A stretch of 64,000 nucleotides of DNA from Blasia pusilla (Eukaryota), in assembly GCA_050084515.1 (NCBI GenBank), contig CM114271.1, positions 24,676,001 to 24,740,000 on the forward strand, read 5' to 3'. Position numbers and translations under genes: made by a program. Below, piece after piece: positions 29,101 to 62,100 of the stretch (position 1 is its first letter; each line of letters starts with the position of its first letter). The notes under the pieces were generated by a model. It saw only the letters and a program-made list of their open reading frames with translations, was not told the DNA's origin and did not search any database.

Positions 29101-32100
29101 CATGCATGCACCAGGTATCAAAAACTGTAGTGGTGTGTAAAATAGCTAAGGAAATCAATATGTTTACCTTAAACATGCCTTCCAACTTGTTTGTAAACTG
29201 GCTCCCACATTCTGTTTTTAGCTGCATAGAGATTTACCAGAACTACGATCATTTAGGTCAACATAATACGTGCAAACAGCTCATTTCACATGCTGTTTGC
29301 ACAGAAGAAAGGCAGAAATTCACTAATGACATACCAAAAGTTTTCAGATCCTAGAAACAAGCTCTAGCTTTTGCAAGTCCATATGGGAGCAGCCAGAAAT
29401 TTTACATAGCTAGAATCTTCCCACTAAGCTCGACTCCCAAGCACTCAGAAGTACCATGAAACAAGTAGTACCTTGGAGATCATAGACTTCTCTGCGTCAA
29501 TAGACGCACTTTTTCCAAGTAACAATCTCTTTGCCAAGTCTTTTTTGTAGAAAGCTTCGAACACATCTTTCCCCTTCATATTGATTTATATCCACGGTCA
29601 GTACATTGTTGAAACATCTTTTCTCTTTCAGAGAGTCAAATTGTGAACTGGTGCTCACTTTCACTTAGAGACTGGCAGGTTTCTTGATAAGTGCAAATGG
29701 CAGTTGATACATTCCCCAACAAGTTGTATTGAAGACTGGCTCAGATATGTCTAGATTACTTACACAAGGTAGTCCAAAAGGGAGAAATATGCACCTGAAT
29801 GAATCTAAAAAGAACCAAAACTTTGTCAAGAGTTCCTTCCAATTCCTCCTCTGAAGTGCCTTTGTTCCCAGCTCTTAATTTTCCATCAATGAACTTTGCA
29901 ATAAGCTCGGCAGGTCGATTCTGTAAACAGTCAGTGTATCAGAAGTCTTTAGATAAAAAAGAAGGAAGATTAGCTACCCTTCCATCCTTATCAAAAAGTA
30001 CTTGGACTACAAAACTTTGCAAAACTCCATGCATTAGTTCACTAGGACTTTCTCAATATGCACAAGTTCCTTGGAAGGGATCTCAGGGACTCCTGTAGTG
30101 CAAAAACTGAAGGAAAGGATCAGAAAACTGACCTGGCGAAGGTTTATGAGATGCTCACAGGCATCCTTAACAGTGTTAGCAAAGCTTTCGTTTTTTGAGA
30201 AGCTTTCTTCCCAAATAGTGTCTAATCTTGCTTTGAGATCCAGGAGAGAAGAAACCATATCTTTATCCTTCTCTTCATCCATGACAATGTCTTGACCAGT
30301 TGCTTTGATGTATGAACTTAATCCTTGCCTTAAGGATTCCAAAGCACTGACTCTAGCGAACAAGGTGTACATTCGTTGCAGATCACTAACTCGATTGCCA
30401 TCCATAAGGATACTGTATCCCTGGAACCAGGACAGTTCTTTGGCATCAGGAATCTTAGAAAGAAAGGAATTTAATTACAATCATTCAATGCATGCAGAGG
30501 AAGGGCTCAAGAGAGGAACTGACAAGAAATTGAGAAAACCCACATAAAAGAAGCGTACATCAGACTTATCATAGAAGGTGGGTAAAATGAATTAAATATC
30601 AATCAGACATACAGACCAGGAAATGCATCATGCTTCAAAGAAAATGGAAGCCCACATTCACAGACAACAACATTAGCATTGTTGAATACCTCTACACCAG
30701 ATTGCATGGTCGATTTGAATATCAAACAACATAAGAAGACAAAGTGAGGAGAACCACATAAGCACTCAATACCACGTTCGGCAAGCCTACTGGTCAATAG
30801 GGCACATGAAAATGTTCGTTCATACTGTAGCTGGATAAATGTCTAGCAAGTAGTACTCAAGAGGGGTTCAATTTGGACCCAAAAAAGTTGTGTATCAATA
30901 ATCTACTGTAAATCTTGAGGAATAAAACTTGACGGAGTTAAAATTCCATCAAAAAGAGACTTGATCCATCACGTTCTGATGTAACTTACTAATAACAACT
31001 GCTATTCTCAACTTTAAAGCCACTGCATCATTTGGAATATAAGACACACATGAGGCTTGATCGTTAACTAGTACAGCAAATTCACCTTTTCAAGAATTGC
31101 ACTGGTGTGACGATCAAGAAGCTGCTTTTCTGCAGTGGCTACTAGCGGCTTCCTTGTAGAGGCATCGAGGTACAGAAGACACCGCTCATTCTCTTCGTGG
31201 AGTCGCACCTACAAAATCAACACACAAGTAGACATCAACACATAGTGAGAGCCATCTCTATAACAATACCTGAGCTTTCAAAGTTGACAATTGTCAGTAA
31301 CAACATGCATCAAATTCTATACACAAGGAAAGATACCCACATTGCATCACTACTTGAGTCCCTACAGCAAGGGACACTGTCACCTCAACCACTGTTGCCC
31401 AAACAAATATTTCATGCAGATACTGGGGATGTGCGGAATGTTGAGAAGGCTTACATTCCTGCCTCAACAATAGCTGATCCTAAAGACGGCTTTACCAGTT
31501 GTGATGCAAGTGTAAGTCCACCAAGACCTCATGTATTCTTTGGCAACAAATTGTCACAAAGCTATGACATGTCCTTCATAAGTACAAAGTTTACCAACCA
31601 ATAAAGTATCTTATCCATGGTTGAAGAACTTCACAACAACAATTCATCATATGCGACAATGTCCATAAAAGCGGCTTTCTGCTGGCCACAACAGTTGACA
31701 GTCGCTACAGTGCATTGTTACAGTTTTCCCTTGTGAAATTGAAACAGGTTCCTAGAACACACTTTCTAGGTTAATTCAGAGATACCTGTAAGAAGTATTC
31801 CTAATGGTGCAAACAAATACAGGGGGGCAAACACTAAACTAGTTGAACATGACTTGTTGTACACAAAGCAACATTGAGCATAGACACACCAACACAAAGA
31901 AAAGCTGACTGAACTTGAAAAAAGGATTTCTGACAATACCTCGACATGTTTAAGGTAGTCTGGGACATCCGTCTGCTGCATAAACCTCGTGCCCTCAGCA
32001 GTGTAAAAATCTGCTGTACACTCAAGGAACGGCCTTTCAAAGCTCTCTGAATAAATGCCAAGAGCACTGAACATGCGCAACAGATGCTTGAGAAGAGTTC

Positions 32101-34366
32101 GATCAACTGTCTCACCCATTCTGAACATCCAAGACATCACCAAAACGTTACAGATACCTTCAGAGCTAATTGCATCCTCCGAGGGTTGCGTAAATAATGT
32201 GAAAAAAACTTTCTTCTTTCTTGTATTGGACATGGCTGTTGGGAAGATAGCAGAAACAACAATCAACTTGGATGAGGATACTTGTTACAGGCTGTTGAAC
32301 ATCAGGAAAAACTAAAGCTACAAAATCCACCATGATGCACAGTTGGGTATTTCAAGGAGGCAACTACCTCTCTTTCTCAATCAATTTCAGTAATCCAGAG
32401 ACAGTCTTGTTCTCAACTTCAGGACAAGCCGAAAGGTGCTTGCGAAATAGAACCAGACCCATATCCCAGAGTGACCGAATATGTGAGGTTTGAATAACAT
32501 AAGTTCGATCTAGATACAGAGCAATACTTCGTATCATGAGCATCTGATCACAATGGTCTTGCCAGCACTTTTCAACATGCGACAAGAAAACCACAGGATC
32601 AGGACTCTGACCAACAAGGGACCGCAGCTTTGTCATGATATGAGTTTCGCATTCTTGTTGAAGCCTCCGGTACAAGTTACTTGACATCTTGTGCAGACAA
32701 AGGTCTTCAGCTGCCTGTAGGTGACCAGCACTTTCAAATATCAATATCATATAGCAGCAATGCACATCACCTCACAGTTGTAGTATCCTCACACATACCT
32801 TCAGATGACCCAATAATAAGGCATGGATTTATTTCTTTTTCTACTTGACTTCCTCTCAACTTTTACAAGCCATAAACAGACGACCTTTGGAAATTCACCT
32901 AGTTGGCAATGTCTAAAGTCCCAAACCCTTCCATCCGTGAAATATCTTCACAAGCATGGGGAAGTTATGGAATTTTATCCAAATGTCATCATTGTTTACG
33001 CTCATCCAGTGTCAAATGAAAACAGCATCCACCCAACAGCAAGCCGGTTGAATAGCCTTAAGACGTTCAGAGGCACAGGTTGGATCTGAACAAAATATAA
33101 GGATTCCGAGCACCGGGCTACACTAAGCTCTGACCAAGGTTGTAATGACACCTTGATGGCTCGACGTTCAGAGAACTCCAATTGTTGGATAAAACGTTTT
33201 ACGATTGTTTGCCTCAAACCGGAGTGAAATGAAAGATGTTCGAACAGAAAATCATATATTTCAGCACCATCTTGCAGGAATGGGAGATACTAACCCGATA
33301 AAGTTCTTCCAGGCTACAAGATACAGGCTGCTTCAAGTGAATTGCCATGACAGCCTCCTTGATCTTGGCCCAAGTTACTTCTTCGAAGTTGGTTGGTAGT
33401 TTAGGTTTATCTGCACAGTACGAACACAACCAAGAACTAAGTAACTTCTTCAATCGATCCTGTGCAACACTATTAGGTCCATTGAGTGCCAGAGGGCCAA
33501 TCATAACGCACACAAATTGCTGTCACATAAGTAGAATGCATAAACTGGTTATCTATCCGTACTGATACATAATAGGTTGGGGTTAGGGAACAGTGTAATC
33601 AAGAAGCAAACGTCCCCATCTCCGGGGTCTAGGATTTGGGCTTCAGTTTGTCCTACACTGTTCCACCTCGATCAGTTAGGTAGAACTGAGGTGCGCGAAA
33701 ACTACAACCGTAACAGACAGAAACTTCATGTATGCATAAACGATGCAATAGAGGTCTTGATTCAGCAATTTTCACATACAACAGATTCCTGAGTTTCGTT
33801 GGGATAGCTAATTGTGAGTAATTCAGAACCTCTCATAGATTTCAGTCGGAGACTCAAATTGGAAGCGCCTCTTACGCTGTAGATGGATTACATGACGTGT
33901 TACATTCAGCCTCATTCCCGTATCAGAAATTCACAAGGGGATGTTCAACCCAACAAGGTTTTGAATCGGAGTTAATGCCTGGCTTTGATAACGAAGCACG
34001 CTGAATAAGGTGAATTTTCTGCAAGGGTGAGTCACAAACCATCAGTTGATCAGAACATGTACCTTTGAAAGGTTTAATAACTAATTTTCTTGCAGGCTGA
34101 GGAGGTGTGGCCTTCTTCCTAGATAAATTGGCCGTGGTCCCGCCACCGCTAATACTCATGGCCATGGCGGGTGTGGGGGCCGAAAGACCATCCCCTTTCA
34201 GGTCTATCATCAAGAGGTCACCAGAGCTGTCTTCGTCGCCGGTTAGATGTTGTGCACCATTTTTCTCAAAGGTATCCAGGGCAGACTGAGGCTTAGGTTT
34301 CTTTGAAGCGGAAAGCATAGTCGACCCGCCAGTTCCACCACTGCTAAGTCTCTTCTTCTGAGACAT
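26156..34366 (-). CDS. CUL4: Cullin-4 (CRL4 E3 ubiquitin ligase scaffold), about 17 coding exons
   Basis: ATG at 34366 (MSQKKR). Motifs include [71 protein letters not shown] and the neddylation motif [13 protein letters not shown]. The C-terminus [24 protein letters not shown] stops at 26156-26158, and the introns are GT-AG. Confidence 0.96.
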
Positions 34367-36323
34367 TAAACTTTCACACCGAGCAGCTCCTAGTGTCACC
34401 ACTACCTGTTACTCTTATCTCCTCCTCACGCATCTCTGCCTTATGAATCTTGTTTCTCGACTCCCACCGACAGTTTCGCTACACTCGATACGACGGCGCG
34501 CTGTGTCCTCCCTTCATCCACGCTTCGAGTGAGCTCCTCGCACTTCCTCCCTGTAATTAATTTTGCTGTCTATGTACTCGTCATCTATCCCTAATGTTCG
34601 AAAGTGTAGGTCACAGATCCCGCGAGCAAATGGAGGCATGCATCCACGCGCCTGAACTCCATTTTTTTCTCGAGTATCTGTCTAATTGACCCCACACGCA
34701 CCAACGTCCGCACCGATTCCACCGCTGAAACCAAACGAGCGCACGAATCCTGCCAAAAGCCCTCGGAAAGTTTGACACCACCGAAGAAGTCGATACCCGG
34801 GTCACTGCTCGCCGCGGCCTCTCTCCTCCGTTGTGAACGCCTGAAACCACTGCAAATCAGCGCGAACACGCGCACAAAAGATACACGGCACAGTCACAAG
34901 AATCATCCCACAATTGACGCAGACGAAATCATCCACGAAGCCCCGAAACGCAACCAGCATCGGACATCACAATCACCCTCGTCCGCTCGACACCACTCCC
35001 GCTCACTCTCCCGTCCCTCCTTTCCTCCGACTCATCCTCCCCACCTGCACCATTCCAATCCGGCTCTGTCAGCGTCACTCCTCCTCGTCAGTCAGCGGGC
35101 CGGTCAGATCGCAGACCGACCGCAGCCAAAACCCCGCACGCAGCAACCTCCCTCCGCACAGCGAGCGCAAGGAAAAGAGCGATGGCACCCCGACGCTCGG
35201 ACCACCAAAGGGGATGGAAGCACCGTGCATCCGTCCAGCAAGCCTCTCTCCACCCACAGAAGAAGAGAGCAGGATGCTAAGCCAGAGCGACGACGAGGGA
35301 GGAGGTTTGGTCTCGGCTGTGGAGGCGGGGGAGGGCCCATTCCTGGGAGAAGACGGGAGGCCGGAACACCGGCGAGAGGCGACGCGTGACGGGGGGTGGC
35401 AATCCGGCGCGCGAAACAGGCGGATGACGGGTGACGGGAGACGGGACGCATGACGCTCTCGCCCATAAGCTTGCTGGCAGCGTAACATTTGGCAGCAATC
35501 CTCCCAAACGGGAGGTCGACACCGGACAGCGCGACGCGTGGCAGAGCCGGCACTCTCCCGGTGCCGGTTGAAGGGCACGGATTAGGGTTTGGCTATCGGC
35601 CTTCGCCCTCGCCGTGCACATCTCCCTCATTACTTCCGCTAATAATTACTCCAAAACTCACGAGTCGTGCATCCATTTCATTCAAACTCCCGAGACGTGA
35701 GACCGGTACCTCCACTATCATCGAGCTTATTACGAAGTAAGACGAACGCACACCCCAAAGATATATACCCTTTCCATCAAAGCGTTTAGGGGCGTTATGT
35801 GACGAGTATTTTTAAACGCTGGAATCAAGTCCCATAGGACGGGAAATGAGAGGGAAACGAGTTTGAACGCATTCCGATGGGTCTTCTTTCTTTCCTCGTG
35901 GAAAAGGGGAGGGAACCGGAATTCAAATAGGGATGCGTGGCCCCGACGCGAGATATCATAGCGAGTGGAGCGGATATTTATTTCTTAATTTATTTGCGCT
36001 GGACATATTTCATAGCACCTTTTTAACATTCTTGAAATAGTTGTGGATTAGTAGGGGTGCAAGGAGGTAATCTTATGCAGAAAACGGGAAAGGATAGAAC
36101 TTCCTTTAACTTGTGAAGGGGAAATTTGACTAGTCATCTTCAATAATTATGTTGTTGAATACGTGACACATACTCGATTAGATCATTTATGTACCTCCCG
36201 TTGTTCAACTTCGTCTCATATTCCATAATAGCCTATGTAATACCCCTAATAGAAGGAGAAGAAAACCGATGTAGAGCATGGTTTGCATTAATAGGAGAGA
36301 TTATCTTTGTGGTGTAGTGTATA

Positions 36324-45161: not shown

Positions 45162-48100
45162 TATTGAAGATTGATTTAATGTCAAACTCATGAGACACAT
45201 GAATTGCTACATTTGGTACTCACACGAAGTAGGGAAGCTTAATCTTGGTTAGTCACTTAAGCGCCATTATCTTAACTAGGGTTAGTTAATCACAGTTCGT
45301 CTAACTGGAGACTATGCTTAAGATTAGGGTTAGGGTTGCTTGTGTATACCCTCTATAATGGATAAGGGACTAACCTTCATTCATTCTCTCATTGCAAAAT
45401 TTTGTTGTCCATGGTGGTGTGCAAGTGTGAGAACCATTTGCCACCACTTATGCTTCTTTAGCAGTTTTCTACATCCTATCATAGCTCGCTTTTCTCATAG
45501 TGGGTGTAGATTTTACGTGGAGCTTTGACGATGATAAAACTTTGGAGGTGTTTTTAAGGGCTTTCCCGATTGATTTAGCCATTTGTTTCCGCATCGGTTA
45601 GATAAAATCCAAAGGTTGGTTCTAATTGTCTTGTAGAGCTCATTGAGAGCTTCCAACACATTTAAAATCTAAGCTCATGCAGTAGCAATTTCAATGTAGG
45701 AAAGTGCAATTAGTGAAGAAAAGTTCTCTACATAAATATATATAAGGTAGATAAGCATAATTACAATATTTGGAAGTTTTGCATGAAACAATTTCTCATG
45801 GATCAAGAACTATGGGAGCTTGTCACAGGTGATGAGGCCAAGACAGAAGGTCACTCAACAAACTTGAATGTTCGCGCTTGGAACAAACGCACAAGACAAG
45901 TAATCCATTACATAATAATAACTATCGATTCGCCAATAATATGTCACATTCAAGATGTTGATATTCGGAAGGAGACATGGGATGCATTAGAAAAGTTGTT
46001 CCATACATCTACAAAGGCCATAAAGCTTCAATTGAAATAGCAATTGAATGAAGTGAGGAAAGGATTGGAGAGCATCGATGATTATATTTTGAGTATCAGA
46101 TAAATTATTGATAAGTTGAATAGCATTGAAGTGACAGTAGAAGATGATGATCTGATTTTGTTTACTCTTCAAGGCCTTCCAAAGGATTACAAGTCCTTTG
46201 AGACTTCTATCTCTGTCAGAGAGAAGTATCAAACTTTTCAAGAGTTAGTCTCACTGTTAATCAGTGAAGAGTTACGTCGAGTAGGCATCAGTAGCTCGTT
46301 TAGTCTTCAAGAGAGTGTCCTATTTACATGTTATGGATCAAACAGAGGCAGGAGTTGTGGCAGAAGCTTCCGTGGTCGTGGTGGATATAAAAAATATCGA
46401 GGAAGAGGCACTCAATATAATGTCACTCAATCAACTACGAATCAGTACCAAACACAATCACAAGGTGGTGATGGTGGAAATCGTTGGGGTCGAGGTCAAC
46501 AACATAGGGTCCATGGATCTTACAATTACTGTGGGATAAAATATCATTGTGCAAAGTTTTTCTTCAAGAATAAGGAAAATATGAGAACATGAGCCTTACA
46601 TCAACAAAACTATGTGGAGCAACAACAACAACGGCACTACCAAGAACAAAAACATTCACAAACTGAGCATATCTTGGTCATGACTCATCATATGGGAGCA
46701 ATGGTCAAGAAAGATTCGACACCAGATACATTGACTCTAGTGCATCAAATCACATCACCTCATAAGCTAAATGGTTCAATAGTTTGGAGCCGGTGAAAGA
46801 TCCTGCAATTGTGTTGATAAGAGATGACATTGAGCATCATATCACGCATATCGATAAAGTTCCAGTAGCATCAGATGGTCTTTGTGGTCTTGGAATTATT
46901 CTCTATCTTCCTACCATTGCAAGAAACTTGATCTCTACATGATAGATAGTATAGCAAGGTTATCAAGTGAAGTTTAACACAAATGGTTGTTTCATTAAAA
47001 CAATGGATGATCAGACTACGATAGCCAAAGGAACTAGATCTGGAAGAATGTTCAATTTAGATATTTCTATGCCAGACATTCAAACAGCAATGTATGGTCA
47101 AAGAAGCCAACAAGTCACATATTTAAATATGTGGCATAAGAGAATGGAAGATATGAATCTTTAAAGATTACAAAGTCCTTCATCATCTAATCTAGTAATA
47201 GGACTTCCTAAATAAGCAAGTCCTGCTACGTTAGAGGTATGTCCTCCTTGCCAATTTGGAAAATAAACTAGATTTCCATTTCCAAAACAAAGTAGAAGAG
47301 CATTCAAAATATTGGAGTTGATTCACATTAATGTGTGGACAACATCACAACATAGCCTTAATGGTTGCCAATACTTCATTTCATTTATTGATGACTTATC
47401 TAGATATATATGTGTATACTTTATGAAAGCCAAGTTAGAAGTATTCTCAATATTTCAAACATTAAGAGTTCTAGTAGAGAAGCAGACTATAGAGAATATA
47501 TTATGAAATTGTGTTCAGATGGAGGAGGAGAGTATCTTGCAATAGAGTTTGATGATTACTTACATCATAATGACATCCAATGTCGAGTACTTGCCGTTAC
47601 ACTCCACAACAAAATGGAGTGGCTGAGAGAAAGAATCGGCATATTGTTGAGACAGCACGAGCTATGGTGAATGAGAACATACCTAAGGTGTATTGGGTTG
47701 AGGCTATAGTGTGTGCAGTCTTCTTGATCAACCAAACTCCAACAAAAAAATTCATGATAAGACTCCATTCTAAGTTCTTCACATGAAGTAAACGTGGTTT
47801 TTCTTTCATGAAAGTATTTGGTTGTAATTGTTTTGCTCATGTTCCTTCTGAAAGATGTAAAAAATTAGACCCCAAAATTTGAAAGATGAATATTCATCGG
47901 CTACGCTGATGGAACTAAGGGGTATAAGTGCTATATTCCATCATCTAGGAAGCTTATTATTAATCGCGATGTTGTCTTTGATGAGCTAAAGTCATGGTAT
48001 GATACATTTGAGCCTATTCCACCTCTAAACTCGTATGTTTTTTTTTTTTTTGGGGGGGAGATGACTGTAAACCAATTGACAATGCCTTCAAATTCCCCAA

Positions 48101-50139
48101 GTACAAGTGTAGGATTAGGAGAGGTCATAGATTCGTCAGTTAAATCTGTAAGTCCACGGAGGAGAAGAGTACATATTCAATCTGTTGACTCTAGTCAGAG
48201 CTCAAGTCAGGTGTTAGAGGTATCTACCTCTGAACAAAAACTTCGTAGATCAAGTAGAGTCACATATCATGTTCAGAGATTCATATATATATATATATGA
48301 AGGTTTTCTTACGATACATCATGCATATATGATGACTACCCTTCAAGACCATAAGCCGAGTTATTTTAAAGAAGCTGCAAGTAAAGTCGAATGGATTGAA
48401 GCTATGAAGGAAGAGCTTGCTGCATTAAAACATCAACACAATTGGGAGTTTACAAAGTCAAGCGCAATCAAGATGGTATAGTTAATAGATATAAAGCGGG
48501 ATTGGTGGCTAAGGGCTATGCACAAAAATATGGCATTGACTATGGGGAAACTTTTAGCCTTATTGCAAAGATGGCGACTACAATAAAAGTGGTTGCAGTT
48601 GTAGTAAGTAAGAAATGGAGATTACATCACATAGACGTCAAGAATTCTTTCTTGAACGCAGATCTATATGAGGAGGCATATATGACTCAACCACCTAGAT
48701 ATGAGCATCCCAAGTTTTCATTTCGCGTACGTATGTAGGTTGAAGAAAGCTCTATACAAGCTCAGACAAGCTCTTAGAGCCTTAGTATGGCAAGATTACA
48801 TTTATCGTACAAGAGTTGGGTTTTAGGGTATGTGATTATGACTCCTCGTTATATGTCTTGAGAGGACAAGATCATAAGATTATCATTGTGCTGTATGTTG
48901 ATGACCTCTTGATTACTGGGAGTACTAAGGATATGGTACAACAAGTCAAGCTAAAATTATAGGCAAAATTTTATATGAAAGACTTGGGAGAACTCAAATA
49001 CTTCTTTGGTGTTGAGTTTATCAAGGTTGGAGAGACCATGTGGTTACTACAACGATAATATGCTCTTCATATGCTTTCAAAATATGATATGACGGCTTGT
49101 AAGCCAATCTCTACACGGTTGGACCAGAGTGTGAAGCTAAGAGTGGATGAAGGAGAGTTGCTTGCACATTCTAATATGTATAGACGCATGGTTGAAAGTT
49201 TGATCTATCTAACTATAACACGGCCAGATTTGAGCTATGCAGTTGGCCTAGTTAGCCAATTAATGCAAGCACCTCGAAAACCTCATATTGATGCTTTAAG
49301 GAGGATTATGCGATATGTGAAATTATTTATTCAATTCGAGCTTCAATTTGAACCTTCTCCGAGTTAACAATTACATGGATTCACATATGCTGATTGGGCA
49401 TGAAGCGTGTCTGATCGACACTCCACATCTGCTTATTCACTTACTCTGGGAAGCGCCGTTATAAGTTGGGCTTCAAAGAAGCAACCTACAGTGGCTTATT
49501 CTCAACAAAGGCTGAATACACAAGAGCAATCAATGGAGCATGTGAGACGGTGTGGCTTCATCAATTCCTTGTTGAGATTTGTGGTAGTAAATTAGGACCT
49601 ATATGTAGACAATATTAATAACATCAAACTTGCTAATAATCCAGTGTTGAGGTGCACTATCATTTTATCAGAGAGAAAGTGCTTGCAAGAGAAATTGATC
49701 TTGTGTATAAAGGTACAGATCAGCAAATTTCTTACATCTTTAGAAAGGCATTGTCTAGAGATAAGTTTGAGATGTTTAGAAACGATTGCGGCTTGTTAGA
49801 GATATCGATATGAGCTTGAGGGGGAGTATTGAAGATTGAGTTACAGTCAAACTCATGAGACACATGAACTCCTACATTTGGTATTCATACGAAGTAGCGA
49901 AGCTTAATATCGGTTAGTGAGTTAAGCGCGATTATCTTAACTATGATTAGTTAATCATAGTTAATCTAACTAGAGACTATGGTTAAGATTAGGGTTAGGG
50001 TTGCTTGTACATACCCTATATAATGGAGAAGGGGACTAGCCTCTACTCATTCTCTCGTTGCAAAATTTTGGTCTCCATGGTGGTGTGTGAATGTGAGAGC
50101 CGTTTTCCACCAGTTATGCTTCTTTAGCATTTTTCTACA
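45162..50139 (+). mobile_element. Full-length degenerate Ty1/Copia retrotransposon
   Basis: LTRs at 45162-45473 and 49827-50139 (TA...CA), degenerate PBS TCCTATCATAGC, PPT GAGGGGGAG and TSD GGAGA/AGAGA. Order is gag, then integrase (DGGGEY, TPQQNGVAERKNR), then RT (LVAKGYAQ, LYVDD), then RNase H. Confidence 0.93.
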
Positions 50140-50530
50140 AGAGAGAGGAGAGAGGAAACTACCTTCATCCCAAAGAGATACATTTGGTTGAAGAGAGCTT
50201 CATGTGGTTTGAAGAGAGTTTCCGTTGGGTTGAAGAGAGGAAGTTTTTTTGGGGAATATTTTTGCAATTTTGTTCTCTATGCTTAGTCACTCCCACAGAT
50301 TGGCTTGTTCTCTTCCATATTCTGGCAACTCGTCGGAATCCGACGGGTTGCAACTTGCACAAACTAAAAAAAAACTGAAAAATTCATTGGAATCACTAAT
50401 GTGGAACAAATCACTTTTTCCATACAAGGTATGAAAAACACTCATCATTTATCCATAGCTGATAAGGGTACAAGCTCATAGTGAACATTTTGGCACTTCA
50501 GGGTACAATCAAAGACCTCATTCTGCATCC

Positions 50531-51900
50531 TCAAAGTGGTTTGTTTAAAATACTTCGCACTTCTTTGAGAAACAAAATTGGTTGGTGGATTCCTACGCCT
50601 ACCTCCGACTCTCTTAAACAACAAGCAACACATAGTAAATGTGCTTACAAGGGAAATACCTTTTCCCACTTGTCTCTCTTTGGACAAAGTCATCACAAGA
50701 ACATGTGGGGAAAGTAACAGATATGTACCACATACATCCCTATCACACTTGAATTCAAAGTGTTGTTCCTGATCCAATACATCCTTCCTATTCCATTGCT
50801 ACTATGAATGTCTTTTGTGGCGATAATTTTCATGTTTGCATCCCGAGCTTATGCGATTCGCTGTGCTCTCTCCATTGTTCGCCTACACATTCTATTTCTA
50901 TTCACCCCATTTATAGGCTCGAACAGAAATAATGGATTGAGATCATCCACCTTCTCAACATACATGTTGATATCAATCCTGGGTTAAATTCAGAATACAA
51001 AGGTCTCTGTAATGTGAATATGCTCCAAAACTCCGTCCATCTATGAGTTTGAAAATCAAGACTTATAAGATTTTCCACTTTGTCAGGGGTGGAATTGGTT
51101 CCTGCAGCAATGGGCCAAATCATGGGAATATTCCCTAGAGCTCCAATGGTAGTCGGATAAGACTTTCGAAGAGTGCATGATTCATTTGGGCATAAGATGT
51201 ACTTCAATTGATCCTCGGTTCTCGTAAAATGATTAAAGGTTTCCAGCCCCCATAAGCCTAGCAGTGGTTGTCTTATTCTTACATAGTTCTTATTCAGGAA
51301 AGTGCCACATGCTCTCCTAATGCCACCGATCCTGCCTTGCAAGTAGGTATACCTCGAGGGTTGCTTCGAGAAATATGCCACCGCTTGAGGTTGCAATCAA
51401 CCTCAACGATCAGACTCTTAAGTGGGAAGTTCCAGCAAAAGAGGGATTTTCAAATAAAACATTCATTGATTTTGCAGAAGGTACTTCAACTCAAATTGGG
51501 GAGCAGTCCTGTGTCTTTGAATACATGAGCGGGATTATTTCATCATCCAAATCAATCACTGGATTCTTTCCTCGATGCACACGGTTGACTTTCCTGAAGT
51601 CAAATTACTTATCAGGTCTCCAACAGTCTCGTTCAGACTTCTTTACTACCATCTCTATGGGACATTTCGAAACACGCCCACGAATGTCCTTACCAATGTA
51701 AACGTCTTTCTAAAGAGGAGTTTGAGCTACGCACCAATTGAAAGCTTCCACATACAATTTCTCATCCCCAGATCTAACAGCGGCTCTAACATAGAGCTCG
51801 TAAATTGAAGGGTCCTTTCCCTTGGTTACGCCTTTTGTGAGGAAGATGTGGAAGCCTGCAGATTATAGCATTGCTCTTGCCTAGTCTTGTTGGCATGCCT
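50531..51900 (-). pseudogene. SWIM zinc-finger protein pseudogene (MEKK1/ZSWIM2-like SWIM)
   Basis: Frameshift-joined translation QRIA.AR...YVVHICYFPTCSCDDFVQ...PCKHIYYVL...IHQPIL.LKEVRSIL gives CxC...CxH at about 50620-50740. The 5' boundary is approximate. Confidence 0.72.
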
Positions 51901-52058
51901 CAACATATATATTTTTTGACATGTTTATGATGACCTAAAGGAGGAATGAACACTCTCGACTCCGCTTATGTTGGGGCATAGGGCATTTTTGTGAATGTTA
52001 AGTCCCTCCACGGGAAAACTTATCAATTGATGGAGGGAACGCCTAAGTGTTGAATGAT

Positions 52059-53017
52059 TGCAACCCGTCACAATCTGACGGGTTGTGAGAAGCATTGAGA
52101 TGAAAACAACCAACCCGTCGATTGAACCATCGCCGACTGAGTGGACTAGCCAGAAAGGAATATTCGGAAATCATGATTAATGACTAGTGGGAAAGGATTT
52201 GCCGGGCTTCCTTCAACCTATGGGAGCCTGACGGTTTGGAAGGTAGACTCATGGGGGACTCCAACCCGTTGGAGTCCGATAGGTTGGAAACCCTAATGAA
52301 GCATGTCGACCGATAAAACGCACTTCGACGAGTTCAATTGAGTTTGGGTGGGACGATCCGACCCATCCGATTCCATCCTATCATACTCCATGGGAAAGAT
52401 CTACTAGAGGTCCTTCAACCCCTCAAAGTCTGACGGATTGCAAAATGAACAAACTCAAAATGGCGGTCCCTCCCTGGTCCTAGCCCGCGATAACCCATCA
52501 CACTCCCACGGCTTGTACCAGTTAGGCAGCTTGGATTTCGTGCAACTCGTCGGAGTCCGATGGTTGCACAAATCAGTTTGAATGGTCCCCGTGCATCCCG
52601 TCGGACTCCGATGGGATGCACGGGACCTAGGCTGGATGGACCCCATGCACCCCGTCATGGTCCAAAGGGTCACAGGAACCAAGCAGGATCAATGGTCCCC
52701 GTGCAACCTGTCAGACTTCAATGGGTTGCATAGGACCTAGGTTGGATGGACCCCACGCAACCCGAAGTGGTCCGACGGGTTGCAAGAACAGGGCACGATC
52801 AATGGTCCCGTGCAACCCATGGGAGTTCGAAGGGTTGCACGTGACCTAGGCTGGATGGACCCCGAGCAACCCGTCGCCCGTCGGGGTCCAAAGGGGTGCA
52901 AGAATTGGGCAGGATGGACCCCGTGCAACCCGTTGGAGTATAATGGGTTGTAGGTAGAATCCTGGGCATATCTCCCATGCATTGGAGTTGCAACCCATCG
53001 CGCTCCAACAGGCTGCA
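52059..53017. repeat. Palindrome array 1 (~15 copies), between the divergent genes
   Basis: Consensus TGCAACCCGTCGGAnTCCGACGGGTTGCA, for example at 52541, 52592, 52702, 52756, 52811 and 52924. The core has a ~55-bp period with two alternating spacer types. Confidence 0.92.
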
Positions 53018-54588
53018 GGTAGCTCACGCGGAACATGCACCGTAATGGTCCACCATTGTACAACCGGTCCCCTGTCGTACACCAACGGTCCGCCGTCGCA
53101 CCAACGGTCGAGTCCAACGGCTCCGGAAGTACATAAGGACCAGTTTCGAGGCTTCTCACTTTTCTATTCTACAATTTTCCGCGTTGTTTTAAACTCCCGT
53201 GTTAATACAACTACCAAAACTTGCTTTCTATTTACTCGAACATTTTGACGGTTGGTGGTGACGGTTTGAATTGAAGCGATTCTTTTCAGAGTTAATGAAG
53301 ATTTAGGTAAGAACCCCTCGTGAAGCATTTGATTGTTGGCTTATTTTAGGATGACTCGAAAAGATTCCCAAGCCAGCAAGGTCGTGAGCTTCTTTCCCAA
53401 GCCCGACAGAACTCCGTCTTTTGGTACGCGACGCACGGCCGCAAATGTTTGGCGAGAGGAAATCGAGGAGCGCGAGCGAGAAACCGAGATGAGGAAGCAG
53501 GAAATGTTGGAGAAACTAGCTTTGGAGAAGGTCGCAAAGCAAGCGGAGAAGAGAGAAGTGAAATTGCTTGCGGATGCGGAGAAGGCCGAGAAGAAATGCA
53601 TGGAGGCGGAGATCAAGCAGAATAAGAGCTAGGACGCCGGCTTCCCGAAAGCCAAAATTGCAAAAGCCAGGAAGGAAAGGGCATTGGTTGTAGAAGAAGA
53701 ACATGCCCAACAACCCACCGAGAGTGTGGGAATGGAGGATGTCTCATCCATGAGGTCGAGTGGTCCAATGCACGAGACCAATACCAAGGAGCTTCTAGAG
53801 ATCAACAAGGAAGCTGTTAGAACCCCGAGTGTCAAGATAATGGAGATCTCGTAAGGAGAAGGAGGAGAGTCTTCTACATCTCAAAACCATGTTGAAGAAT
53901 TCGTCCTCTTTGCAATTGAAGAGTTTCCAGTAGACTTGCCGGATGAGGCTCCATAGGAGCTCGTTGGACTTGACACTGACCCACTTTTCGAGCGGGTAAG
54001 AATTATTCAATAGTTCTCTCTACACTGCATTACTTCCAGTTGTTCTGAAAATTGGAATTGACAGTGGTAACATTCGCGGAGGTGTTGAAGCAGGAGATAC
54101 TGGTGGATGGCCGGAATGTCCCGAGGATTCTTCTCTACCAACTCTAAACGATGGAATACATTTGACAAATCCAATCGGAGAAAGACATTGACAAGTTGAA
54201 GCAGTCATTGACAACAACGTCATACGTTGACTTCCCACCTTTCTATCTCCGACCGTAGGTTGAGCATGGAACCCAAGCTTTGGTTATGGAGGAAGAATTG
54301 GAGAGTCTAGATGCTTTTTGGAGGTTGAGGGACGTTGAGTTCCGCAAGGCAGTAGCAACTCAATACAAGTGGATGCAAAACTTGTACTTCTTCATCTAGG
54401 ATGACAACCACCAATTCATGGCACGGTCGTAGTTTGCAGCAGAGCGACCAAACTCCCTTGAGGCTCACTTTTGCGTGAGGGCGGTGGTCCTCCATCTCGA
54501 CTCAAATCATATGGCTAAGGTGGAGATGGCTATGCTCTCCATGAACACGTAAGCATCCTCAACAAATTTCCCCAAATAAGAAGCGGTT

Positions 54589-55397
54589 TCAAGCCGTCAG
54601 ACTTCGACAGGTTGGTTCTTAGTAGTAATCATTAACGATAGCAGCCACCCGTCAGAAGGCGACTGGTTGCGATAGGAACAACTTGCTCCCGTATTTGCAA
54701 ATCGTCAGACTCTGACGGATTTATTTTGGCTCTCTATTGAGTTTCCTGGAAACCCGTCGGAGTCCGACGGGTTGCACAATCTCGAGTGTAGCCATCCAAG
54801 TAGGATAGGCCATATAACCCATCAGACTCCGACGGGTTGCATGATCTTTATGGAATGAGTCTTGGTTGGGGTGGATGTGCAACCTTTCAGTCTCCGACGG
54901 GTTGCAAAGGCATGCAAAGCCAGACCATTCAAACCATGGCCTTTCTTACGGCACATGCAACATGTTGGAGTCCGACGGGTTGCAAACCACTCACAACAGG
55001 GCCTTTCTTACCGCATATGCAACCCGTCGTACTCCCACGGGCTGTAGGGCCAATCAAACTCGGCTCTCGAAACTACAGTTCGTGCAATCCGTCGAACCCC
55101 AACAGGTTGGAAGAGGAGGGACCTCTTGCAACCCATCGGACTCTATCGAAGTGCAAGAGAAAAAACTTGCCTTAGAATCCTCAACCACATGTAAATATAA
55201 TACCCGGTGTGGGTGGCTTTGCAACCCCTCGGTTTTTGACAGATTGAATTTTTGAATTTAGGGGCCTGGAGGTGCAACCCATTGGAGTCCAACAGGTTGC
55301 TACCCAACCTAGATTAACGCGGATGCAACCCGTCGGTTTCCGACCGATTGCACCGAGGAAGCTTTTGGAGCAACTGTCAAACTTCGACGGGTTGCAA
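54589..55397. repeat. Palindrome array 2 (~14 copies), in an intron of the methyltransferase gene
   Basis: Same consensus, for example at 54750, 54878, 54956, 55273 and 55324; spacers are variable. Confidence 0.92.
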
Positions 55398-57310
55398 ACA
55401 AGTGCCATTTTGTTCGTCTACTTCCAATCCCTCAGAAACCGACAATTTTATTGTTGTAAGTGTTCTTACTTCTCATTGATGTTTCCAACATCCTGTCGGA
55501 AGGGAATGTTACCCATCATTGGATCGAGGAATGCAACCAAGTGAGGAAGGTTCTTACAACGTACCCGTCGTAATACAAAGGATTCCTTGGAGAGGATTTG
55601 GTGGATGAGATGGTCGCAAAAGGAGCACAAATTAAAAAAATACTTGGGCCAACACATTCATTTCCCAAGATGCATTTGTTACGATTCTCTGTTGGCCAAA
55701 AATACAACCGGCAAAAAGAAGCGCGACACTCGAGTTGGAGCAGAGAGGGAATGTTTTGGATTCTTAGAGAGCGAAGTTCATTAAGGCTGTTGTGTCGGCG
55801 GCGATCATCTACCTCAAGGTTGAGGACGGTGATGCATCGGTTTATCGCCATCCTCAACCCCGAGCTCGGACGTGACTTTTACAAAGAGTTGAAGGCCATA
55901 ATCAAGCGACAACAAAGGAGGGACAAGGATCCTCGTGGACGGATTGTAGAGAACGTGTCATTGGATAGAGCTCACTTGTTCGCCCTCTCAAGGATTTCGG
56001 AATTTAGGCAGATCCAATTGATGAAGATCAGTCTAGTGGGAACAGAGGCATAGAACAAATCGGCACACCATCCCCCTGGGGTGTCGGACCTAGTCATTTC
56101 CCAGTGGCTACGAGAATGGTCCTTCTGGAATGCCTTGCGCTTACAAGGAAAGTCGATGATTGAGTGCCTTCAAGGCGACATGCAGAGAATTCAGCCTATT
56201 TCAGAGGAGACTAGCCTCGATTCGGCGGAGGAGTACAAATTGTGGTTGAATCACATCCGGGATAAGCCGGCAAAGAACCCCAAGTTCAAGACGATGTTCA
56301 AGAGCGATATTTTGCCGGAGGGAGATCTCGATGAGGAGATTGGCGACCCAAAGAAACGAGACTTTGAAAAAAAGAAGAAGGAGCTTCAAGATCAAGCCGC
56401 CGATTCATCCCGCCAACGAGCTGCACAGAGGATGGTGATCAAATTTTTGCCCTCCTGTGTGAACGTAGGAAGATGGAGGAAGTTCCCGGCGGCGCTCAAG
56501 CTATGGGCAAATACTCCGCATGGTGAAGGATTCTTCATGTACCACGTGGAGATGGCACTCGACATGAGCCCTTGGGAAGTGCTGATCAAACTGTCCAATC
56601 TGCTTGGACTTCAACGATCATCGAGGACGGCAACGGGAGGCCCCGAAAATGAATCTTATGGATTGCGACGTCACGGAGACCCCAACAAGCAGGCACCCCA
56701 CTCGCGAGAAGAAAAAGAGGGAGATAACGGGTTCCTCCAAGGGGGGGGGGAACAAGAATGTAGTCTAAACTCCCTCATTTTTGGGGAAGCACAGGGATGG
56801 AGCATCGAAAATTACTATCGCTACTGGAAGAACTAGAGAAGTTCTCCACATAGGAGTCCACGATGGCTTGGAGAAGCTGACACTCTTGGGATGAAAGCTT
56901 TTGCAAAACGGCCATGCCTCATGGACCGTCAATGGGGTACCTGAGGAGGTTGCACTTGACCTCCTCATTGTAGATCTACCGTCGGGGCTTAGATTGTGGG
57001 CAGAGAACCCATGCGACACAGCCCCAGATTGGAACATTCCCTTCACATATGACCAAATCGAGTTGATGTCCTCCTTTGCCAATGCGTATCAAAGTGACAC
57101 GTGATGTTTCCTTGTTCTCACCCGTGGTAGTGAGGATGAGCTCTTAAACTTGCAATGCGCGAAGCGATCATTGAAGTGGCAAACAGTGCAGTCTTGGGAA
57201 GTGAAGAACAACTACCGCTAAGGTCGACTACAAACCAAGTCTTGGTAAGTTCGAAAAAATTATGCAACTTTTTTCTTTTTTTTTCTCGCATCCTGGTTTT
57301 CATTTTTTCT

Positions 57311-57648
57311 TGCAACCCATCGAACGAGTTACACATTGATCCTAACAAGCCTTGTGCAACCTGTCGGAGTCCGACGGGTTGCAGACGGACTATGCGCACA
57401 ACCCGTTGGACTTTGGTGGATTGCAGCACCCACTTGTCGGGTTCTTGGGTGTGTCTAGCAATCCGTCGGATTTTGACGGGTTGCTGATAGGCCCTGTGAC
57501 TGCCTGTGCAACCCGTTGGAACCCAACGGGTTGCATATCCACAATTGGTGAGTAACCCGTCTGAGTCCTACAGTTCGGATCCCCCACTAAACGCAAATTG
57601 CCTCGGTGACATCTGACATTTGCAACCCGTCGGATTCCGTCAGGTTGC
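57311..57648. repeat. Palindrome array 3 (~7 copies), in the intron splitting the methyltransferase domain
   Basis: Same consensus, for example at 57355, 57507 and 57621, between the donor at 57245 and the acceptor near 57709. Confidence 0.9.
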
Positions 57649-58952
57649 TCCTAGAAGACTTCTTCCTCCCATTGATTCTTAGCTGATTTGTACGGTTCTA
57701 TTCTTTGCAGATCGAATACTATTACGTCTATTTTTTGTCAAACCAGAGCACGGTTTCGAGGTTTTTGAGGTACAGGATCCTGTTGATCCAGGTTCAGATG
57801 GATTCACTCTTACCAACCTCTTTAATTCATCCCCATAAATCGTCGTTGAGGAAGGAATGATTAGAGGGAGAGGAAAATCACCCGCACTCATGCATACCCT
57901 CATGGAGCTCTGTTCGAGGCCAGGTGATTTGGTGCTCGATTTGGTGGGTTTTTCTCGGGCAACTGTTAGAGTTGCTTGGCAGAGTGGCCAAAATATTCTC
58001 TGCCTTGAGTCTCGAAACACCTTGTTTGCACTTTTATCGGAGGCAAAGTCTGACTACGAGAGGGATATGGGCGTTTACAAGTCGCCTGCACGGATCAATG
58101 AACCTGCACTGGAGCCAGTGGTTGTGACGCCATCCTCACTACCAGTGATCCTAAAAATCGGAAGGGCAAGGCCACCGGTGATTCTAGAGGAGTTGTCAGA
58201 TGATGATGAGTGAGTGCATGTGCCTTGGATTTGAAGCGTTTTGGAGTTGACATGTGTTGGTTCTTGGGAAGTAGGAAATATTGATATCAATGGGTTTCCA
58301 TTTGCAGAAGCTTCAAAATCAGTTGTCGAAGTAGGCGTTGGGACTCTTCTTGTGTCACATGGGACCGATACGGGGTACCTAGGGGGACAAGGGTCTCGGA
58401 TCCTCCTTCCTTCTCTGTTCCAATCAACAATCACGTAGAAGAGCCTCTGACTAGTCTGAGAAGTCTCTTGTCGAGGAACCGGCAAGAGTTAGGAACATTT
58501 GTTAAGATGACGAGGCTGAAGAGATCATGGAATATATTTTATTGTTAAGGAAATCAAATGTAAATGACCGATTTGCAAATGGTTTTAAATAAAGTGGTTT
58601 TTTTAACGCAACCAATTCTCTTCATGCTTATGGTCTGATATTATTTTTTATCACATTTCAAAATTGAGGTGAGGCTTTTGTGCTTTTGTAATGTGTCGAA
58701 AATCGACGGGTTGCCTGCTGTCTTTTCACATTTACATTTTTCCTGGAAAATATCTTTTCCCATTTATAGTTTTCATGATGTTCTTTCTCTGTACCGAGAC
58801 CAATTTATTCTCTTCGTTTCTTTTGGTCTTGTATACGTGCTTTCTTGGACTCCTATCTTTGGTTTGAGGCGTTGGTAACTCATCTTATTCCAAAAGGTTG
58901 AAAACCACTCCAACCGAAGAGTAGAATCAATTTTTGCAGAATATCCAGTCTT

Positions 58953-59115
58953 ACAACCCGTCGGAGTCCAATGAGTTGCAAGATAATCAAAATGAGAGAC
59001 AATACAATCTTGCAACCCGTCGGATTTTGACGTGTTGCAAGAGGTGCAACCTGTCGGCTTCCGACAGGTTGCAAGGGATGCAACCTAAACCTGATGCAAC
59101 CTGTTGCAGGTTGCA
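58953..59115. repeat. Palindrome array 4 (~4 copies), downstream of the methyltransferase gene
   Basis: Same consensus at about 58953, 59011, 59045 and 59095. A lone copy also lies at 50325-50352 near the other end of the element. Confidence 0.85.
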
Positions 59116-62100
59116 ATAAGTTGTGGAGAATCCCATCTGATGGAATAGTATTGATCAGATGGGATATTTCATGCTTTTTTACATGAAGAGACCTCCTACC
59201 CAACATGGTGAGGATGGGAGTCCTACATTAACAGTCCATAATTTCAACCATATCTTTTGAGAAGTTAAAACGTAAAGGGCACATGAGTCTATTGACACCA
59301 TAGACAGAGTCTTTATTAGAACCTTTCATTGAGATCATTTTTTTTGTACTCATCAAATTATCTACCGATGGTCCTCCAACAACAATATCCCTCAATCGGC
59401 CTTACTATAGAGCTGGCTTAGACAAGCAATGTGAAGAAAATTAGGCTCACATGGAGAGTGTTGGAAGGATGTTTGCAGTGGTTCTTCTGATGTCATCTTG
59501 TTTTTCCAAGCCTGGAAGAAGAAGGTTAGTTTAGGCCCGAATGTGGTCTACTTGCTACTCTTCTCTAAAGATTTTTGAATTTGAAACCATCTTTTTTTTT
59601 CAAAAATGTCAAAAAGTTTTAAAGAAAGGAGGCGGATTCAACCTCTTTTTTTTTAATAGAAGAGAGACTCCCCTCTCTTCCTCTCCTCTCTTACTCTCTC
59701 CTGCTATAATACTAGCCCCCTCTTTGGAATATTGTGAGCTGAATAAGGTAACGGTGAGAAATAGTTACCCTTTTCCAAGGATTGATGACCTCTTCGATAG
59801 ACTATCAGGGGAAAACTACTTCGATAAAATTCTTTTAAAATCAAAATATTACCATATTCGGATTGCCGAAGTGGATGTGGAAAAGACTACGTGTAGAACG
59901 AGATATGGCTTGTTCAAGTTTGTGGTGATGCCCTTCGGTCTATGTAATGCGCCTCTAGCATTCACCACATTGATGGACTCCATTTTCCACGAGGAGACAC
60001 ATGAGTATGTGATCATCTACATAGATAATATACTCATCTATTCGAAGTCACTAGAGGAGCACACTCGACACTTGAGAGCGATGTTGTTGAAACTAAGGGC
60101 GAACAAGTTGTACGTGAAGATGGAAAAGAGTGAGTTCGGGTTGGGCAAGATCAAGTTCTTGGGTCATGTGGTTAGCAAAGATGGAGTTAGTCCAAATATG
60201 GACAAGGTGAAAGCCATCGTCGAGTGGAAACCGCCTTCCACAGTGAAGGGAATGAGGAGATTTATCAGCGCGGTGCCGTTCTACAGAACCTACGAAAGGA
60301 ATTTTTCGGGGTTTGTGAGATCTCTCACATCTTGGATTGCAAAGTATGCTAACACAACCTGGATCCAAGAAGTGAATGACGCGTTCAATCGAGTCAAGGA
60401 GATCCTATTGCAGGAGGTAGTGTTGAAGCTGTTGGAGTTCGACAAGCCGTTCAAGGTGCATACTGATGCTAGTGATTTTGCAATTGCAAGAATGTTGGTA
60501 TAGAAACGAAGACTTGTAGCGTACCAGAGTAAGAAGCTCAATAACACTAAGAGGAGATGGCCCACTCATGAGAAAGAGTTTTTCTTGTGGTCCATTGGTT
60601 GAGGAAGTGGCGTCACTATTTGGGACTTCACAGGATTTGAGTGTTCATCTAAAACGTATCACTCAAGTATTTTGAGACCGAGGATCGAGTGACACCGAAA
60701 CAACTGCGATGGCATGATACCTTGGCGTTGATGAATGTGGAACTGATCCACAAGCAAGGGAAGGATGATGTCATTCGAGATGTATTGAGTTGCAGGGATG
60801 AAGACATGCCATCGACAACACAGGTCTTGAGAGCAATGTTCCCTAAGGAAACAGATCTGGAAAGAAGGATTCGTGAGGGATACATGAAAGACATCCAGAC
60901 GAGTGAGTACCTAAGGAAGTTGAAGCAGGGTGAGAAGGTGGCCAACATAAATTTGAGGCAAGGTTTGCTAAGGTTCAAGCAGAGCAGGATCTATGTGGGC
61001 AAATGCAGATTGCGAACCAAGGTGTTAGTGGAATGTCATGACGGACCCTTGTCAGGACATAAAGGGGAAAAATTGACGTTGGCTGTTTTGGCTAAGAGGT
61101 TCTTCTTGCCCAACATGAGAGAGGATGTTGCTTAATATGTGAAGACCTGTGTGACCTGTCAGGCGAGCAGATTTTCTTATGGGAAGAAACAAGGCTTGCT
61201 ACAGCCTTTGCCAATTCTGGATGGACCCTTGTAGAGTGTGAGTATGGACTTCATAAAAATTATTCCAGAGTGTGAGGGATAAAACGCCATACTTATGATA
61301 GTTGATTGGTTTGGTAAGTTTGGGAGATTCGTGCCGATGGTGGATTAAGCGACGAGCTTACGACTTCTCGACTCTTCCTGGATAGTTGGTGGTGTGCGCA
61401 TGGGTTGCCTAGTTGCATTGTTTCAGATCAGGATCCAAACTTTACATGTGCCTTTTGGTAGCATTTGTTCAAGAGGTTCAAGACCAATCTGAGTTTTAGC
61501 ACGGCCTTCCATCTGTAGACAGATGGGCAGACGGAAAAGCTAAACTCCCTCGTGAAGCAGTTCTTAAGGAATTACACACAAGCAAGATTAAGCGAAGTGG
61601 CTGAGTATGTCCAAGTTCTCCTAGACCTCAACCAAGCATTCTGCAATTGGAGAATCTCAATTTCTCTTGGCTTATGGACGTGAGCTAGAAGAGCCCCTTG
61701 ACCTAGCCCTTTGAAGGGCACTACATCAGCACAGACTCGACAAGCGACGACAGAAGTTTTGTTAGCGGAGATGCGAGAATGGGAGGAGCGAGCAAGGAGA
61801 AACCTTTCAAAGTCTCAACCAAGGTCTGTGGAGCATGCTAACAAGAGCAAGCGCCAAGTGAGATTCCGAGCTAGGGAACAAGTGTGGTTCACTGTGAAGA
61901 ATCTCACTCTTCCGAAGGAGTTACCTCCGAAGCTATCTGCCAAGTATGCTCGATCCTATGTGATTAAGCAAACCCATTTGAGGACATGTATACCTTGGAG
62001 CTACCATAAGAGTTTAGGATACATCCCACTTTCCATCTGTCATTGTTGAAGAAGTATCTTCAAGATAATGAGCGTCTGAGCGCAAACAGACGTTGAGACC

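Follow-up and report, generated by a model that had tools for sequence, protein, structure and literature searches.

The bacterial and phage beta-class DNA methyltransferases of family PF01555 (type II subtype beta and type III Mod-like enzymes, for example M.RsrI, the enzyme of Bacteroides phage BT-TP2 and the adenine methyltransferases of rV5-like phages) are among the described systems closest to the subject of this report, a decayed, repeat-borne coding region at 56769-58213 on the + strand of a 64-kb stretch of eukaryotic DNA (43.6% G+C, zero N; "the window" below means this whole stretch). The functional eukaryotic N4-methylcytosine (4mC) enzymes named in the available text of two reports are those of Marchantia and of bdelloid rotifers (PMC8885841; 10.1101/2021.02.12.428880). 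As described in the accessible parts of these sources, the 4mC methyltransferases MpDN4MT1a/b of Marchantia polymorpha are expressed in sperm and have a bacterial origin (Walker et al., bioRxiv 10.1101/2021.02.12.428880), and bdelloid N4CMT is a permuted PF01555 enzyme with a chromodomain and acquired introns that, according to its authors, lacks eukaryotic homologues (Rodriguez et al. 2022, PMC8885841). An earlier note on this DNA, made from its letters alone, had given these two systems as background, in agreement with the papers as far as their available text goes. In the sources consulted, DNA amino-methyltransferases of prokaryote type are rare in land plants. The accessible part of Iyer et al. 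(2016, PMC4738411) gives few N6A-methyltransferases in land plants, and describes the methyltransferase domain of the DIRS1 retrotransposon as probably inactive in all copies, its catalytic and substrate-binding residues being substituted. A literature search of main texts, without supplements, returned zero descriptions of a repeat-borne PF01555-type domain in plants; if a multi-copy plant repeat carries such a PF01555-derived domain, Marchantia and the rotifers are joined by a third context, that of a mobile element.

The reading that we favour, and hold to be rather probable, is that a repeat carries the gene of which the locus is a pseudogene copy, that the C-terminal domain of this gene came from a bacterial or phage beta-class amino-methyltransferase, and that this domain had probably lost its activity already in the family. 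The earlier note had taken the locus for a horizontally acquired, eukaryote-adapted gene; what is found instead belongs to a diverged multi-copy repeat family and is a pseudogene, its frame broken by three stops and by two or more frameshifts. With the PF01555 enzymes it shares the motif X helix, the motif I region and the next strand (33-39% identity over 58-78 residues) and the position of the aligned block at the C-terminal end of the protein. It differs from them in scoring below the family cut-off, in having VGFSR for FxGxG and DLPS for (D/S)PPY, in a catalytic half that is not detectably homologous, and in its intron-like interval, its more than 400 unassigned residues upstream, its stops and frameshifts, and its multiple copies in a plant.

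MpDN4MT1 and N4CMT were compared with the locus by their published descriptions. The Marchantia proteins would, like it, represent an amino-methyltransferase lineage of prokaryote type in a land plant of bryophyte grade; in the available account, however, they are a tandem, intact, expressed pair with TSPPY and shown activity, whereas the locus is a dead member of a dispersed repeat with DLPS. N4CMT would share with it a horizontally acquired PF01555-type domain with gained introns and extra eukaryotic sequence, and the available text differs in describing a conserved, active, allelic single gene where here there is a repetitive, decayed copy that lacks the diagnostic motifs. In DIRS1, as at the locus, a repeated element has a module that derives from a methyltransferase and seems to have no catalytic function, but the DIRS1 domain is, in the accessible text, M.EcoKI/TaqI-like and said to come from cellular PCIF1, not PF01555, and it stands in a polyprotein after reverse transcriptase (RT) and RNase H, whereas here the RT (gypsy, 59535-60500) belongs to a separate remnant and other copies retain the 3' end of the intron-like interval. 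By analogy, the locus would resemble MpDN4MT1 and N4CMT in ancestry and DIRS1 in setting.

The likeness to methyltransferases is carried by the block near the end of the last exon (Table 1). In a Pfam scan of the 124-residue open reading frame (ORF) at 57839-58210, PF01555 (N6_N4_Mtase) was the sole match (E=0.001, 19.5 bits), with ORF residues 13-62 aligned to profile positions 166-215 of 221, and a 176-residue read-through translation (P0001) matched the same profile at E=0.002 and 18.5 bits. The best solved structure in a PDB search was M.RsrI (1eg2), a beta-class N6-adenine enzyme (E=0.0021), whose residues 227-273 align with P0001 residues 65-111, KSPALMHTLMELCSRPGDLVLDLVGFSRATVRVAWQSGQNILCLESR. 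Three DNA-methyltransferase families of PHROGs were matched (E=0.0012, 0.01 and 0.15), as were 151 of 50,697 phage records by tblastn (best E=0.02); among the 30 rows listed, 28 fall under annotated DNA or adenine methyltransferase genes and two in unannotated records. Three of the phage methyltransferase genes were inspected and have a canonical motif IV (DPPY, SPPY and DPPF). Blastp gave 33-37% identity over 67-78 residues, one match being to the last 78 residues of the 224-residue BT-TP2 enzyme (33% identity, 40.4 bits), and hhalign against a profile of 40 relatives of this enzyme returned a probability of 80.7% with E=1.3e-5 over 54 columns. The detectable relatives of the block in PDB, PHROGs and the phage tblastn search are phage and bacterial only.

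Wider searches were negative. HMMER of P0001 against 1.84 billion protein representatives found no true relative at E<=0.001, eukaryotic or otherwise, and its lone match (E=9.1e-07), to a 1181-residue tandem-repeat protein aligned in 9 stretches at 21% identity, was rejected as repeat-inflated. The 124-residue ORF had zero related loci in 2.9 million viral contigs, and none in prokaryote-genome or metagenome contigs; zero NCBIfam families matched the C-terminal or the upstream half. The AlphaFold2 single-sequence model of this ORF was unusable (mean predicted local distance difference test score 36.7, predicted template modelling score 0.27).

Because an E-value of ~1e-3 is unimpressive when a 64-kb stretch holds ~1000 such segments, the whole window was scanned as follows: A six-frame tblastn search with 110 methyltransferase queries had its best match in the block itself (42.0 bits) and reached ~30 bits elsewhere, and our own hidden Markov model (HMM), run over the 1307 stop-to-stop ORFs of at least 30 residues, placed the 124-residue ORF at E=0.024 and the runner-up at 4.8. 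The block is C-terminal in the coding region, as in the family, and is followed by ~65 residues and a stop. We conclude that the motif X/motif I block is very probably homologous to beta-class N6/N4 DNA methyltransferases. It very probably descends from the S-adenosylmethionine (AdoMet)-binding half of PF01555 enzymes, while membership among the enzymes themselves fails on score, on motif IV and on motif I. A separate tblastn match of the methyltransferase queries at 35213-35284 was set aside as a chance "VHPSSKP" resemblance.

Motif I aligns as L-V-G-F-S-R-A-T with F-G/A-G-S-G-T-T, so that both conserved glycines of FxGxG are replaced, and at least one of these replacements requires more than one base change. 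The replacements hint at long divergence and not at recent decay. In the stretch just upstream of the block, 57770-57870 (P0001 residues 30-64, "SDGFTLTNLFNSSP*IVVEEGMIRGRGKSPAL"), there are weak, repeat-inflated matches to fibronectin-type-III-like repeat proteins, the 1181-residue protein among them; the fibronectin chain of PDB entry 1mfn, which matched the same part of the query at E=0.015, was judged a chance match. In PF01555 enzymes the target-recognition part sits between the W-K motif and motif X.

The above searches place the AdoMet-binding half of a beta-class enzyme at the locus, but is the catalytic half with its motif IV also there? The earlier note had claimed a beta-class domain with motif IV ahead of motif I, and this holds for the motif X/motif I block (Pfam, PDB, PHROGs and hhalign) and not for the motif IV half, which failed every test; likewise the comparison with PF01555 that it proposed gave a match below the cut-off for the C-terminal half and zero match for the upstream half. 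A 150-residue read-through containing LHIGVHDGLEKL and DLLIVDLPSG matched zero Pfam families at E<=10, zero PHROGs or NCBIfam families at E<=5 and zero PDB chains at E<=10; it had a forward score of -2.9 bits with our own HMM, zero colinear matches in blastp, and a probability of 0.2% in hhalign. The profiles that we built come from one narrow subfamily, so that their reach is limited, but the broad Pfam model was equally without a match. A 69-residue stop-free piece with DLLIVDLPSG had zero usable matches in the ESM Atlas. With a position-specific scoring matrix (PSSM) for motif IV, LDLLIVDLPSG (56955-56987) ranked 38th of the 75,377 11-mers of the window, a score for which ~0.25 sites are expected by chance in the ~500 eligible positions, and a chain of five N-terminal blocks at family-like spacing scored 16.7, a value equalled by 6.9% of null anchors. 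This sole candidate reads DLPS and so departs from the canonical (D/S)PP(Y/F/W). As motif IV, DLLIVDLPSG is a resemblance at motif level only. The earlier note was right that both motifs deviate (DLPS for (D/S)PP(Y/F) and VGFSR for FxGxG). The PSSM ranked another peptide, "RGTRVSDPPSF" (58381-58413, + strand, in the frame of 58285 and downstream of the stop), 6th of 75,377; its "SDPPSF" is taken as probable chance because no hydrophobic strand comes before it and because in the beta class motif IV would not be found on this side of motif I.

Table 1. Features of the locus and its surroundings. Positions are those of the window; frames are given as start position modulo 3.
Feature	Position	Strand	Remarks
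Cullin-4 exon	31769-32284	-	95% identical to Marchantia, Calypogeia and Sphagnum proteins
Ty1/copia remnant, left of element	46104-49200	+	gag 46104-46589; RVT_2 ~48.4-49.1 kb
Palindrome span	50320..59075		all copies in the window; probable extent of element or element cluster
Palindrome clusters	50320-50351, 52055-53016, 54584-55396, 57351-57653, 58949-59077		57351-57653 in the putative intron
Putative first coding exon, same decayed multi-exon gene	53352..53990	+	three-frame translation
Upstream open frame, function unassigned	55574-56836	+	frame 2; 420 codons; single TAG 56051-56053
Exon part placed where a catalytic half would be	56769..57244	+	frame 0; LHIGVHDGLEKL, DLLIVDLPSG, WEVKN
Peptide LHIGVHDGLEKL	56844-56879	+	frame 0
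Peptide DLLIVDLPSG	56958-56987	+	frame 0
Putative spliceosomal intron	57245..57710	+	466 nt; GTAAGT donor, pyrimidine tract, CAG acceptor
Last exon	57711..58213	+	IEY in frame 0, LLRLFFVK... in frame 2; terminal TGA 58211-58213
Peptide IEY	57711-57719	+	frame 0
Peptide LLRLFFVK	57719-57742	+	frame 2
Peptides KSPALM...SRPGDLVLD...SGQNILCLE	57875-58009	+	frame 2
AdoMet-binding-half homology block	57875..58072	+	motif X KSPALMHTLMEL; motif I region GDLVLDLVGFSRAT; next strand NILCLE
Ty3/gypsy remnant, right of element	59535-61132	+	RVT_1 59535-60500; RNase H; integrase zinc finger 60653-61132

The locus copy at 56769-58213 cannot encode a protein. The peptides quoted in the earlier note are all present on the + strand and in the order given there, in two reading frames and not in one open frame. 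Frame 0 (the frame of 56769) is interrupted by TGA at 56892-56894, TGA at 57102-57104 and TAA at 57219-57221, and frame 2 (the frame of 57683) by TAA at 57836-57838, before its terminal stop; in all, the ~325 codons of the methyltransferase-like region are broken by three in-frame stops and by two or more frameshifts. A further frame change is required between the upstream ORF and frame 0, the 420-codon frame and the methyltransferase-like frame overlapping at 56769-56836. A G10 run at 56741-56750, just 5' of this overlap, is a likely hot spot of length change or sequencing error. The exons that flank the intron-like interval can be joined in frame by two readings only: one, which is that of the earlier note, needs two 1-nt shifts, near 57214 and right after IEY (57719), and keeps the family-like "EY"; the other needs one shift near 57205-57218 into the third frame and splices directly to DRILLRLFFVK. 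Five DNA contigs have an extra C behind 57214, and most of the depth there is without it.

The interval between these exons is bounded by GT and AG, divides the coding region, and is followed at once by the family-like IEY/LLRLFFVK. The earlier note had called it a spliceosomal intron, which fits this canonical interval; from its sequence it is plausibly one, and we list it as putative. It carries about 5-6 copies of a palindromic repeat, and this repeat stretch folds far better than shuffled sequences (z = -7.9). Two diverged DNA contigs (records 12 and 31) run across the acceptor, 57710/57711, and extend by more than 31 letters to either side of it. The 3' end of the interval, if not more, is therefore preserved in other genomic copies, which favours spread at the DNA level over spread via spliced RNA.

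Further upstream, the stretch listed as a putative first coding exon begins with an ATG at 53352, is rich in Lys and Glu and contains in-frame stops; it matched zero Pfam families at E<=1, and diverged copies of it occur in public DNA contigs. The 420 residues of the upstream open frame had zero matches in Pfam or PDB and none at E<=0.01 among 2670 homologue candidates (proteins of 231-735 residues only). In the ESM Atlas a 260-residue ORF had weak matches (0.80-0.88), to clusters of hypothetical proteins only.

The window holds one copy only of the element's gene. To look at other copies, 52000-59500 was compared with DNA contigs of four public runs (two studies, one organism label; small shares, 0.05-0.19), and 771, 303, 345 and 193 contigs matched in the respective runs, mostly at 80-95% likeness. 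Among the differences, transitions are two- to three-fold more frequent than each class of transversion. The methyltransferase-like exons are covered by such contig pieces, at ~12-18% difference, within 56824-57216 and 57798-58268 (for example 56824-57159, 56961-57216, 57798-58035, 57872-58105 and 57964-58204). To judge from these contigs, the locus belongs, as a decayed copy, to a repeat family with many members, and is no single-copy host gene.

The non-coding intervals of the gene are filled by a perfect to near-perfect palindrome of 29-32 nt with the consensus TGCAACCCGTCGGAGTCCGACGGGTTGCA. Its 12-nt core, GCAACCCGTCGG, has 28 matches with at most one mismatch (0.10 expected), all between 50325 and 59072, and a repeat finder placed at least 36 copies of the palindrome (family D1) at spacings of about 50-65 nt within clusters. 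Bins with palindromes have several-fold higher contig depth than coding bins.

Taking these observations together, we envisage the following. The family would probably be a mobile element that moves at the DNA level, in the genome of a bryophyte-like land plant, with a gene of several exons separated by palindrome-packed intervals. The C-terminal domain of that gene would descend from a bacterial or phage PF01555 N6-adenine/N4-cytosine DNA methyltransferase and would have arrived by horizontal transfer, and the stretch upstream of motif X may be a very diverged catalytic half. The domain may already have been non-catalytic before the family spread, since the loss of both motif I glycines needs several base changes; the inactive domain of DIRS1 would be a parallel.

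Several observations weigh against this reading. The Pfam score of the 124-residue ORF lies under the PF01555 gathering cut-off of 26.7 bits. DLPS and VGFSR are read in one copy only, in which ancestral loss and private decay are not separable, and a match of such weakness and small length does not carry a tree, so that donor and direction of transfer are presumed. Apart from the palindromes, zero terminal inverted repeats were identified in the element, and likewise no transposase and no target-site duplication; "mobile element" is for this reason argued from copy number and the repeat-rich setting. The catalytic half has no similarity detectable by any method, though in real members of the family it is conserved like the C-terminal half, and the locus may therefore hold half a domain. 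In that case the repeat family would have captured or retained a C-terminal AdoMet-binding fragment, and the "motif IV" region would be unrelated and its likeness a coincidence. We regard this as unlikely, but as the main rival to the favoured reading: the upstream tests are all negative where the same tests are positive for the C-terminal half, and a motif IV site as good as the one found has a chance expectation of about a quarter in the relevant zone, while on the other side the candidate motifs (GD-LE-L-like, D-PS, W-K and hEY/LFFVK) stand in family order, their spacings are near those of the BT-TP2 enzyme in a post hoc comparison by eye (motif IV to W-K, ~73 residues here and 70 in BT-TP2; W-K to hE, 17 and 15), and the coding-like frame runs on upstream with no visible junction. 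A resemblance by chance alone, with zero methyltransferase ancestry, would account for library E-values of ~1e-3 each and under the Pfam cut-off, for a match picked from the ~1000 comparable segments in the six frames of the window, and for the absence of any significant methyltransferase match among the 1.84 billion representatives. It is nevertheless quite improbable, as every library returned one family for the same 50-78 residues, the ORF stands 12 bits over the best chance match in the window and far ahead of the next ORF in E-value, and the alignment reaches the C-terminus of the phage enzyme and stands where a long coding-like region comes to its own C-terminal end.

Two other origins were considered. 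Bryophyte genomes hold giant-virus insertions and the nearest matches of the block are phage genes, so the locus might be what is left of a large DNA virus or virus-like element that became endogenous, and not of a cellular transposon. PF01555 enzymes are frequent among the genes of such viruses, and PF01555 methyltransferases are abundant in chloroviruses according to the accessible part of one source (PMC7248222). The probability of such an origin is nonetheless very small in our view: six-frame Pfam scans of 48.4-59.5 kb found zero other viral hallmark domains, the gene has intron-like intervals, the family is high in copy number with transposon-like divergence, and the viral contigs gave zero matches. 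Scarcely credible is a working host methyltransferase gene whose breaks are errors of sequencing or assembly or mis-modelled introns. The G10 run and the 1-nt length difference at 57214 (five contigs) are indeed error-prone types of site, but the three in-frame stops are substitutions and not length errors, neither diagnostic motif is canonical, and the locus, flanked by copia and gypsy remnants, has many sister copies at 80-95% likeness.

Under the favoured reading of a pseudogene copy from a repeat-borne, probably inactive family, the locus is a decayed relic of which half a domain is verifiable, and its value is as a lead to the family and not as evidence of 4mC or N6-methyladenine. It would give a concrete family in which to seek intact, possibly active copies in bryophyte genomes, and the family can be checked directly in the full genome. 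That it is an undescribed bryophyte element of which intact copies, in this genome or in those of relatives, still methylate N4-C or N6-A is improbable; if true, this would be a transposon-borne route for prokaryotic amino-methyltransferases into early land plants, with a possible connection to the origin of the liverwort sperm 4mC enzymes.

Some further features of the repeats and the surroundings were observed. The palindromes may serve the element as binding sites for a protein, or may represent a miniature element derived from it. In a tandem array at 52581-52873 (110-nt unit, 2.7 copies, 79% matches) there are two of them per unit. An Rfam scan of 50000-59600 found zero families, and the 3 metagenome contigs (57-67% G+C) that carry a 19-nt half of the palindrome have nothing else in common with the element and are unrelated DNA. 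On the minus strand, at 50620-50718, a SWIM zinc finger (CSCDDF...PCKH) scored just below threshold (E=0.0014, 18.5 bits against a cut-off of 19.6 bits) in a decayed coding region with an ORF at 50914-51396 upstream of the finger; this region diverges from the + strand gene across the palindrome cluster at 52.0-53.0 kb. SWIM fingers are typical of Mutator-like transposases; this one is the single hint of a transposase, and Pfam scans detected no MULE domain around the minus-strand region. The Cullin-4 exon, by its identity to bryophyte proteins, points to a land-plant, bryophyte-like context. In the public runs, contig depth is greatest, by a wide margin, over the gypsy remnant on the right side of the element.

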